This document shows, piece after piece, positions 32,493 to 35,384 of a stretch of 64,000 nt of DNA. How positions within the stretch are numbered: the first letter of the stretch is position 1; the number at the start of each line of letters is the position of its first letter. The position numbers and the translations under genes are program-made. Source of the DNA: Albugo candida (taxonomy: Eukaryota). The stretch spans positions 186,001 through 250,000 of the forward strand of contig JBDOQK010000019.1 in the NCBI GenBank assembly GCA_040437565.1, read 5' to 3'. The notes under the pieces are model-generated. The model saw nothing but the letters and a program-made list of their open reading frames with translations, did no database searches and was not told where the DNA came from.

Positions 32493-35384
32493 ATGGTTCG
32501 TCTCTGCGTCTCAAACTTCGCAGTCATCGCGTTCATGCTACTCGACTTGAGCTTTCAGCACTTAGTATTGGGTATGCGACCAGCAGTAAACGATACCCAA
32601 CTTATGTTTCGGAATCATGGAAAATCAAAAGAAATCCGTCAACTCGGCAAATTCCAAGCTCCCGAATTTGATGGGTGAGTTTCACCTCGATGCTATTCCG
32701 CAATCGTACTGGTTATTCCGTTTTAGGGTCCATCATAATCAAATGCATGAACACATACTGTTTTATGCTCCTGGCACTAAGAGGTACGCCCAAATCAATC
32801 TATTACTCGCAACATTATCAACTCTACATGTCAGGTCTCGAGAAATTGACCTACACGATACACTAAACCCCGATCCTAAGAGGTACGCCCTAATTCAATG
32901 CAAATGCGCAACACGGGCTGATATTTTATGATCAGGCTTCGGCAAAGCCAAGTCCACCAAGTCCAAGCTCCTGACTCTGATGGGTGAGCCTAACTTCGAT
33001 GCTATTCCGCAACTTGTACTAATTGCATGACTTTAGGGTGCATCAAATCCTACAAAATGGACAGAGCTCCTTTCAAGGTCCCCGCTCGGACAGGTAAGCT
33101 CAAAATCAATTCTAAAATCGCAGCGTGTAGTGATCTCTCAATTTAGGTTCCACCAAAAATCAAGCCATGAACTCATTTCGGTTTATGATCCTAGCTCGAA
33201 GAGGTACGCCGAACTCAATCGAAGCCGCGCAACATCACTAATTCTGTATCTCAGGTCTCGAGAGAGTAAATTTCACGAAACACAATATCCAAATTCTAAG
33301 AGGTACGCCTTTATTTGGTGCGAATTATCAACACGAGGTGATATTTGATGGTCAGGCTCCGGCTAAGTTCACTTGGCCGAGTCCAAGCCTTCGACGCTGA
33401 CGGGTGCGCCATAATTTGATGCTTTTTTACAACGTCTACTAATTTCATAAGGTCAGGAACCATCCGATCCTACCCAATAAACTTGGGTCGGTTCAAGCTC
33501 CCGACTCTGGCAGGTAAGTCCAAATTCAGTGCAAATCTCCAACGTGTAGTAACATGATAGCTTAGGGTACATCAATTTCAACTCCGGCAAGCCCAATCTC
33601 CTGGCTCTGATGGGTGATTCTAGATTCGATGCTATCTCACAATGTGTACTAACTTAATGGGCTCAGGTTTCGCCAAATTCTACCCAATAAACTTGGGTCG
33701 GTTCAAGCTCCCGACTCTGGCAGGTAAGTCCAAATTCAGTGCAAATCTCCAACGTGTAGTAACATGATAGCTTAGGGTACATCAATTTCAACTCCGGCAA
33801 GCCCAATCTCCTGGCTCTGATGGGTGATTCTAGATTCGATGCTATCTCACAATGTGTACTAACTTAATGGGCTCAGGTTTCGCCAAATTCTACCCAATAA
33901 ACTTGGGTCGGTTCAAGCTCCCGACTCTGGCAGGTAAGTCCAAATTCAGTGCAAATCTCCAACGTGTAGTAACATGATAGCTTAGGGTACATCAATTTCA
34001 ACTCCGGCAAGCCCAATCTCCTGGCTCTGATGGGTGATTCTAGATTCGATGCTATCTCACAATGTGTACTAACTTAATGGGCTCAGGTTTCGCCAAATTC
34101 TACCCAATAAACTTGGGTCGGTTCAAGCTCCCGACTCTGGCAGGTAAGTCCAAATTCAGTGCAAANNNNNNNNNNNNNNNNNNNNNNNNNNNNNNNNNNN
34201 NNNNNNNNNNNNNNNNNNNNNNNNNNNNNNNNNNNNNNNNNNNNNNNNNNNNNNNNNNNNNNNNNCTACCCAATAAACTTGGGTCGGTTCAAGCTCCCGA
34301 CTCTGGCAGGTAAGTCCAAATTCAGTGCAAATCTCCAACGTGTAGTAACATGATAGCTTAGGGTACATCAATTTCAACTCCGGCAAGCCCAATCTCCTGG
34401 CTCTGATGGGTGATTCTAGATTCGATGCTATCTCACAATGTGTACTAACTTAATGGGCTCAGGTTTCGCCAAATTCTACCCAATAAACTTGGGTCGGTTC
34501 AAGCTCCCGACTCTGGCAGGTAAGTCCAAATTCAGTGCAAATCTCCAACGTGTAGTAACATGATAGCTTAGGGTACATCAATTTCAACTCCGGCAAGCCC
34601 AATCTCCTGGCTCTGATGGGTGATTCTAGATTCGATGCTATCTCACAATGTGTACTAACTTAATGGGCTCAGGTTTCGCCAAATTCTACCCAATAAACTT
34701 GGGTCGGTTCAAGCTCCCGACTCTGGCAGGTAAGTCCAAATTCAGTGCAAATCTCCAACGTGTAGTAACATGATAGCTTAGGGTACATCAATTTCAACTC
34801 CGGCAAGCCCAATCTCCTGGCTCTGATGGGTGATTCTAGATTCGATGCTATCTCACAATGTGTACTAACTTAATGGGCTCAGGTTTCGCCAAATTCTACC
34901 CAATAAACTTGGGTCGGTTCAAGCTCCCGACTCTGGCAGGTAAGTCCAAATTCAGTGCAAATCTCCAACGTGTAGTAACTTGATAGCTTAGGGTATATCA
35001 ATTTCAACTCCGGCAAGCCCGATCTCCTGGCTCTGATGGGTGATTCTAGAGTTGATGCTAGCTCACAACGTGTACTAATTTTACGAGCTCAGGTTTTCCC
35101 AAGTCCTACCCAATAAAGTCAGGTCGGATCAAGCTTCAAACTCTGGCAGGTAAGTGTAATTTTAGTGCTTATCTGCAACGTGTAGTAACATGATAGCATA
35201 GGGTATATCAATTTCAATTCCGCCAACCTCATATTCCCAACATTCAAAGGTGAGCATCAAGGTAATCGTAAATTCGCAGCTTGTGTTGAGTGTTGCGCAT
35301 AAGCTGCGACGGCTTCAACCAAACGAACGCGGTCTAAGTAAATCTCCTCATCATTGCTTAGGCAAAAAACCAAATTCAGCCTGA
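32493..35384 (+). CDS. Secreted repeat protein encoded by a micro-exon array (paralogue 2; ~26 visible exons)
   Basis: Exon 1 (32493-32674) encodes signal peptide-like MVRLCVSNFAVIAFMLLDLSFQHLVLG. Following exons: 32727-32783, 32835-32882, 32936-32983, 33037-33093, 33147-33203, 33255-33302, 33356-33403, 33457-33513, then alternating 48/57-nt exons to 35249. All are phase 2 with GT..AG introns of 51-53 nt, and the spliced frame has no stop. Terminal stop is at 35337 or 35384. Confidence 0.85.
33470..35249 (+). repeat. 210-bp tandem repeat (~8 visible copies around gap 34166-34265) = 57-nt exon + 52-nt intron + 48-nt exon + 53-nt intron
   Basis: Exact 210-nt periodicity (e.g. GGCAG|GTAAGT donors at 33514, 33724, 33934, 34144 and 34310, 34520, 34730, 34940). 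The last copies diverge. Confidence 0.95.

Follow-up and report, generated by a model that had tools for sequence, protein, structure and literature searches.

The gene analyzed here lies on the forward strand at positions 32493-35384 of a 64,000-nucleotide stretch of contig JBDOQK010000019.1 (the window), in an oomycete genome which protein matches assign to Albugo candida or a close relative. The initial annotation of this stretch, which had already suspected an oomycete-like genome, had described a hidden gene for a secreted protein composed of a signal-peptide exon and about 26 visible exons, the internal ones being very short and alike in length and phase. The structure of the gene, its splicing, its relatives and its possible origin were evaluated by computational analysis, and the features of the locus and its surroundings were collected in Table 1.

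Table 1 Features of the micro-exon gene, its paralogues and flanking genes (window coordinates)
Feature	Position	Strand	Description
Exon 1	32493..32674	+	ATG, 182 nt, phase-2 end, signal-peptide-like N-terminus (script parse)
Diverged array part	32675..33565	+	Eight internal exons (57, 48, 48, 57, 57, 48, 48, 57 nt), nine introns of 51-53 nt
Perfect tandem repeat	33470..34165	+	210 bp (57-nt exon, 52-nt intron, 48-nt exon, 53-nt intron), 3.3 copies
Assembly gap	34166..34265	.	100 N, within the gene, inside the perfect repeat
Copy of 33470-34165	34266..34961	+	Identical over all 696 nt
Diverged 3' units	34962..35303	+	Exons 34992-35039 (48 nt), 35093-35149 (57 nt), 35202-35249 (48 nt)
Terminal coding exon (putative)	35304..35337	+	Stop TAA 35335-35337
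3' fragment of a paralogue, like P0002	21628..21877	+	Partial exon, 53-nt intron, 57-nt exon, 52-nt intron, 48-nt exon
Third paralogue	48454..49560	+	Signal-peptide-like exon, longer N-terminal region, 48-nt phase-2 exons, 51-53-nt introns
Cysteinyl-tRNA synthetase	11809-13914	-	Flanking gene
FYVE/SAM/trypsin-domain open reading frame	62026-63918	-	Flanking gene

Gene structure and predicted product

The length of exon 1 leaves 2 nt over, which puts its end in phase 2. The coordinates of the internal exons were re-derived by script, and each of these exons was 48 or 57 nt long and symmetric, with phase 2 at both ends, exactly as first described. The first ten introns (32675-32726, 32784-32834, 32883-32935, 32984-33036, 33094-33146, 33204-33254, 33303-33355, 33404-33456, 33514-33565 and 33614-33666) were 51-53 nt in length and all bounded by GT..AG, and beyond intron 10 the array goes on with a 210-bp period. 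The diverged part of the array was found to be a ~420-bp four-module super-unit repeated two-fold. By Tandem Repeats Finder, the 210-bp period was detected with 100% identity over 33470-34165 and with 95% identity over 34266-35226. The three introns of the diverged 3' units measured 53, 52 and 54 nt and matched a profile built from the gene's introns with E values of 4e-11 to 7e-7; the last of them (35250-35303) is unlike the others in its 54 nt, and the range of 51-53 nt given at first for the GT..AG introns holds for all but this one. The spliced product, which had been reported to run on without a stop, is predicted to close at the TAA of the terminal exon, and coding ends before 35384.

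The gene may have 19 to 26 exons, or more. On either side of the assembly gap the same 696 nt occur, and the right-hand copy is probably an unmerged contig overlap. As assembled, the gene has the 26 exons of the first count, and after the overlap is merged it has 19. With a perfect repeat, the overlap could equally well lie in another register, or the array could have collapsed. The same pattern was displayed by 10 of the 13 gaps (100-N runs) of the window, at 13990, 22595, 25376, 30228, 34166, 37972, 40347, 45431, 49289 and 56745, where the left suffix was exactly the same as the right prefix over 16-1352 nt. The pattern also came out when the window was compared with itself. Most of these gaps look like unmerged contig overlaps, by which the scaffold would hold artefactual duplications.

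No in-frame stop was found within the internal exons, and the 13 distinct ones among them were also free of frame-breaking indels, though the units are ~30% diverged. The lengths of 10 of the 13 distinct introns of the gene were not multiples of 3, and 12 of these introns contained stops. Chains of open 48/57-nt exons and 45-61-nt GT..AG introns were then sought on both strands and in 20 shuffles; the longest chain at the gene comprised 13-14 units, against 3 or fewer elsewhere in the window or in the shuffles. The branch-like motifs pointed out at first were recovered as [C/G]T[A/G]A[C/T] at -17 to -19 from the intron 3' end in 13 of the 18 distinct introns of the family (this gene and the two paralogous loci in Table 1), compared with a background of 9.5% for a 19-nt stretch. 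A CA(A/G)(C/T) block was also observed ~25-30 nt before the 3' splice site in 17 of the 18 distinct introns and in all three family loci; it often stood within ...GCAACGTGTA... and was kept as well as the splice sites. The internal exons make up ~80% of the merged coding sequence of 1104 nt, and since all of them are symmetric, the frame is preserved on loss, gain or skipping of any exon, as had been stated for skipping, loss and duplication.

The merged 19-exon model encodes a protein of 367 aa with tandem amino-acid repeats, the modules of 16 or 19 residues. Its mature part has an isoelectric point (pI) of 10.3, a grand average of hydropathy (GRAVY) of -0.96, one Cys, and Q, S, R, G and P as 48% of residues, and two N-x-S/T sites occur in the whole protein. 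Read heuristically, the N-terminus combines a positively charged start with ~14 residues of hydrophobic core and has small residues ahead of position 28; this agreed with the earlier view of the first exon as a signal peptide. This signal-peptide-like N-terminus was conserved in three paralogues, and its exon was the best conserved coding part between them. In the AlphaFold2 single-sequence model of P0001, the public protein model for this gene described below, the mean predicted local distance difference test score (pLDDT) was 41 and only the N-terminal helix was confident. The product is thus predicted to be basic, hydrophilic and intrinsically disordered. In the merged model, Lys-Arg stands right at the end of a module four times (residues 79, 95, 149 and 165), and the RxLR and CHxC motifs were absent from the merged-model protein, the CCG motif not having been searched for.

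Splicing in sequencing-run contigs and a second expressed copy

Eleven sequencing runs were found, none of which is on record as RNA; four of them from one study (X1-X4) were guessed to be RNA. The contigs of X1, X2 and X3 and of the DNA-like run X6 were compared over window positions 32000-33665. In the contigs of X1-X3, all nine predicted introns of this stretch were removed at GT..AG and at the predicted coordinates. For the first intron, the joint was listed in X2 and X3 only, and X1 had loose ends there of 16 and 12 nt that matched the neighbour exons. The tenth junction was backed too, as the 48-nt exon 33566-33613 was joined to the next 57-nt exon. The junctions 32674/32727, 32783/32835 and 33513/33566, which the initial annotation had singled out, were all seen in the run contigs. 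Differently, the contigs of X6 were colinear with the window, read through the introns and showed no joint at the splice sites, and in the intron-only bin 33624-33665 the depth was 0 in X1-X3 versus 18.8 in X6. The simplest reading of the X1-X3 contigs is spliced mRNA; the gene is real and is spliced at the predicted junctions.

Every listed joint in X1-X3 linked consecutive exons, and one contig of 406 nt in each of the three runs traversed eight exons without branching. No exon-skipping joint was among the joints listed for the compared stretch, from which rare isoforms cannot be excluded, as these are contigs. At 32980 and 33514, loose ends were found in which an exon was joined to a partner other than its window neighbour. 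The loose ends and between-letters of the compared contigs were consistent with the exons of the diverged 3' units, which lie outside the compared stretch.

Two observations were made at the borders of the compared stretch. The 490 nt upstream of the ATG (window 32000-32499) were covered by contigs of X1 and X2, not of X3, with no joints and at about a quarter of the depth of exon 1; it could mean that the gene has a long 5' leader or starts at a second site as well, or that a different transcript is present. In addition, one contig each of X1 (1154 nt) and X2 (1380 nt) carried a late 48-nt exon (window 33564-33615) near one end, followed by more than 1 kb outside the compared stretch, which may be a long 3' part of the transcript.

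A second copy of the 5' part of the gene (window 32474-32926) was also detected, spliced in X1-X3 and with introns in X6. In X1 its exon 1 carried 17 differences and a 1-nt insertion, and ~10% of positions differed in exons 2-3 and their introns. The second copy was spliced as the window gene through three exons, and after the fourth exon it ran into an exon of the 57-nt type which is absent from that place in the window. This copy would be either an allele or a paralogue, and we infer that unit order differs between alleles or paralogues at the DNA level.

Public models, paralogues and neighbourhood

The gene is only partly hidden, as the initial annotation had called it: the open reading frames (ORFs) of the stretch had missed it, but a public A. 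candida model, P0001, already holds exons 1-10. Exon 1 was 97% identical to the N-terminus of this 254-aa "unnamed protein product", and in-silico spliced exons 1-10 were identical to its residues 1-200 at 196 of 200 positions. The last 54 residues of P0001 mapped to 43043-43204 (+) with 94% identity, ~9.5 kb past exon 10. Since the contigs run on into repeat exons and not to 43043-43204, the public 3' end looks mis-joined, and the P0001 model is probably wrong there.

To delimit the family, an intron profile was built from the 13 distinct introns of the gene. Besides all units of the gene, it recovered the two paralogous loci of Table 1, both on the + strand. The signal-peptide-like exon of the third paralogue, a locus predicted from sequence, was 46% identical to P0001 over 43 aa. 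A conserved signal-peptide exon, 48/57-nt phase-2 exons and homologous ~52-nt introns were found in the comparison of the family with P0001 and P0002. Beyond the three loci, the profile gave only weak scattered matches in the window, with E of 0.33 or worse; those at 39946-40626 were inspected and discarded, as they were no micro-exon arrays. A strict intron-exon DNA pattern matched one site in the window and was judged too narrow.

Relatives were few in the databases. An exhaustive HMMER search of 1.84 billion representatives retrieved only two proteins, P0001 and P0002, both from A. candida. In word-based protein searches, the exon 1 query had one match, P0001 matched only itself, and P0002 matched itself and P0001. 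No Pfam family was assigned to P0001 or to the first ORF of the third paralogue, and P0002 gave a chance-level match only (E 0.14). The ESM Atlas provided no usable feature match, its structural matches all having template modelling (TM) scores of 0.32 or below, and a metagenome scan with P0001 returned 295 pattern matches, none of which was confirmed. The literature searched contained no description of a gene of this kind from Albugo or any other oomycete, and the gene's four accession numbers appeared in no paper found.

Self-comparison revealed a segmental duplication of 66-75% identity in six blocks between 26547-36120 and 40057-50336, which is old and carries one micro-exon gene per copy. 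The common blocks take in ~50 nt upstream of the ATG and ~150 nt that lie roughly 0.6 kb beyond the stop. The region of ~20-51 kb in the window, which holds the three micro-exon loci, had few long ORFs (only eight ATG-started ones, of 110-137 aa) and was flanked by ordinary long intronless genes (Table 1).

Origin of the array and its interpretation

The sequence evolution of the array was assessed from its paralogous units. The introns aligned mutually, column by column, over their whole length, and as they are homologous end to end, the duplicated unit is exon plus intron. Exons were no better conserved (identity 0.65-0.73) than introns (0.66-0.75), and over 66 codons the proportions of nonsynonymous (pN) and synonymous (pS) differences were 0.31 and 0.41, respectively, with pN/pS of ~0.75. 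Compared with the main haplotype of X6, five exon differences were read by hand, four of which change the residue, together with four intron and four upstream differences over similar lengths; eight further differences were not displayed. Exon length, frame, GT..AG ends and the branch-like motif were maintained despite the sequence divergence. This pattern fits selection that keeps the repeat open, spliceable and of a certain composition but is not directed at its precise sequence.

On balance, the locus is probably a gene that is spliced constitutively and encodes a repeat protein which is secreted, disordered and basic; the gene's array would be changed by unequal recombination of exon-intron units. 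Each 16- or 19-residue repeat has its own symmetric phase-2 exon followed by an intron of ~52 nt. The array would have originated by repeated tandem duplication of one ~105 bp exon-intron unit, which may have grown to 210-bp and then to 420-bp super-units, and in-register unequal recombination would still alter it. The targets of selection would be the frame, the length of the exons, the splice signals and the composition as a whole, not the exact peptide sequence. Splicing appears constitutive in the available data, and since every exon is joined to the next, variation would arise mainly at the DNA level, in the number and order of units, and not by exon choice. The protein most likely would act outside the parasite, at the interface with host or microbes. 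Several points weigh against this interpretation. The near-equal divergence of exons and introns also fits little or no selection at the protein level. The RNA status of X1-X3 is only guessed, all three come from one study, and contigs leave isoform frequencies, transcript ends and strand unreadable. No contig junction backs the last intron or the terminal exon, and secretion rests on the heuristic reading of the N-terminus.

The initial annotation had favoured combinatorial exon skipping as in schistosome micro-exon genes. In the form considered here, many combinations of skipped exons would yield variant secreted proteins able to evade host recognition. Every internal exon has a length divisible by 3 and the same phase, and any subset of them stays in frame; the protein is secreted-like, lineage-specific and fast-evolving; and the loose ends at 32980 and 33514 show non-neighbour partners, all of which would suit such a system. 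However, we consider it unlikely and unsupported so far, with joints only between consecutive exons and an unbranched 406-nt contig over eight exons in each run. The loose end at 32980 was unlike any exon of the window and belongs to the second copy, which bears introns in X6, so it is not a skipped isoform. The contig evidence against skipping is itself weak, since contigs drop rare variants.

A processed polyprotein would have analogues in fungal Kex2-processed repeat proteins and nematode tandem CLE effectors. In this case the product would be cut at basic module ends (Lys-Arg, or Arg from the split AG|G codon) into peptides of 16-19 residues for the host or microbes, and the four Lys-Arg sites placed precisely at module ends, the uniform module length and the disordered, basic product are consistent with it. 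Such processing nevertheless seems improbable: Lys-Arg is limited to four modules, each of them from the diverged part; the final residues of the young, amplified modules are Asp-Gly or Gly-Arg; and the Arg/Gly at the junctions is a product of the splice-site consensus (A/G)G|G, for which no processing explanation is needed. The Kex2-type arrangement, in which repeated peptides are each bounded by dibasic Lys-Arg, is therefore not what the array displays, with four sites and none in the amplified modules. Very unlikely, in our estimate, is a transcribed and spliced but functionless, decaying locus, produced by neutral expansion of an exon-intron minisatellite without a selected protein. The similar divergence of exons and introns, the pN/pS value, the four of five exon differences to X6 that change the amino acid, and the failure to find relatives outside A. 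candida would point in this direction, but 13 distinct internal exons without stop or frameshift, next to introns that mostly break the frame or contain stops, argue for a maintained reading frame. Moreover, the architecture is common to three paralogues ~30% diverged, and their signal-peptide exon is the best conserved coding part.

The favoured reading, a constitutively spliced gene with an array changed at the DNA level, has counterparts among exon-per-repeat genes, such as those with the 54-bp exons of fibrillar collagens, elastin and the PEVK exons of titin. In these genes, as here, same-phase exon arrays of uniform length come from tandem duplication of exon and intron, and the frame is safe at any copy number. 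Unlike them, which are genes of animal structural proteins with longer, unrelated introns, the present gene encodes a lineage-specific, secreted-like protein of a plant parasite. Introner elements, homologous intron families spread through the genomes of some algae and fungi, also provide many introns with one common sequence. In contrast, the intron copies found here by the profile search of the 64-kb window were confined to the tandem arrays of the family, which argues for duplication together with the exon and not for insertion.

Like the micro-exon genes (MEGs) of Schistosoma, the present gene opens with a signal-peptide-like exon and draws most of its coding sequence (~80% here) from a large number of very short symmetric exons, and its product is, as there, lineage-specific, fast-evolving and, by prediction here, secreted. 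MEGs are defined by symmetrically placed exons of 3-81 bp, and their introns are up to 5 kb long (bioRxiv 10.1101/2023.06.21.545858). The introns of schistosome MEGs are long, whereas those of the present gene are 51-54 nt and mutually homologous, and here there are just two exon sizes, in tandem copies of one module. For schistosome MEGs, alternative splicing has been documented; none was seen here in contigs, which cannot show its absence. No sequence relationship emerged from the exhaustive HMMER search. In its workings the gene resembles micro-exon and exon-per-repeat genes, but its tiny, homologous introns and the absence of a sequence match in that search set it apart from the schistosome family; the schistosome-type analogy drawn at first is better replaced by tandem duplication of exon and intron, as the introns are not long and unrelated. 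An independently evolved oomycete micro-exon system is possible but rather doubtful. In this small gene cluster, every repeat of a secreted host-interface protein would be spliced in as a symmetric exon of its own, and the result would be a variable surface or apoplastic protein comparable to schistosome MEGs, with unit number and order varying among alleles, paralogues and isolates; skipping might add further variants. The family would also stand out for a mass gain of introns, at least 18 in a single gene of an intron-poor genome, through amplification of an exon-intron unit.

In repeat-containing effectors, the repeats normally lie inside one exon. The present gene shares with them a secreted-like tandem-repeat protein, a biotrophic plant pathogen and a gene-sparse duplicated region, and is unlike them in that each repeat is a separately spliced exon and RxLR and CHxC are absent; repeat-containing secreted effectors of plant-associated organisms are a class cited in PMC12503489. 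Cationic, intrinsically disordered apoplastic proteins with antibacterial activity have been described from A. candida itself (bioRxiv 10.1101/2022.05.16.492175). The product of the present gene, from the same organism, is secreted-like, predicted to be disordered and has a pI of 10.3. In the main text of that report, exons and introns are not mentioned, the single "repeat" refers to repeated experiments, and nothing ties the gene to that set of proteins, so a role as a cationic disordered apoplastic protein may serve as a lead only.

For Pythium and Phytophthora infestans, 1.5-1.7 introns per gene are given in PMC3790786. With at least 18 near-minimal introns, all mutual copies, against the usual one or two per oomycete gene, the present gene is a clear outlier and a clean natural case of what would be intron multiplication via tandem duplication. 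Standard ORF scans miss such genes, and since the public 3' end is also apparently wrong, catalogues of the Albugo secretome may under-count such proteins. Should the races of this Brassica parasite differ in array length or exon use, the family would be a possible marker of, or player in, the evolution of the host interface.

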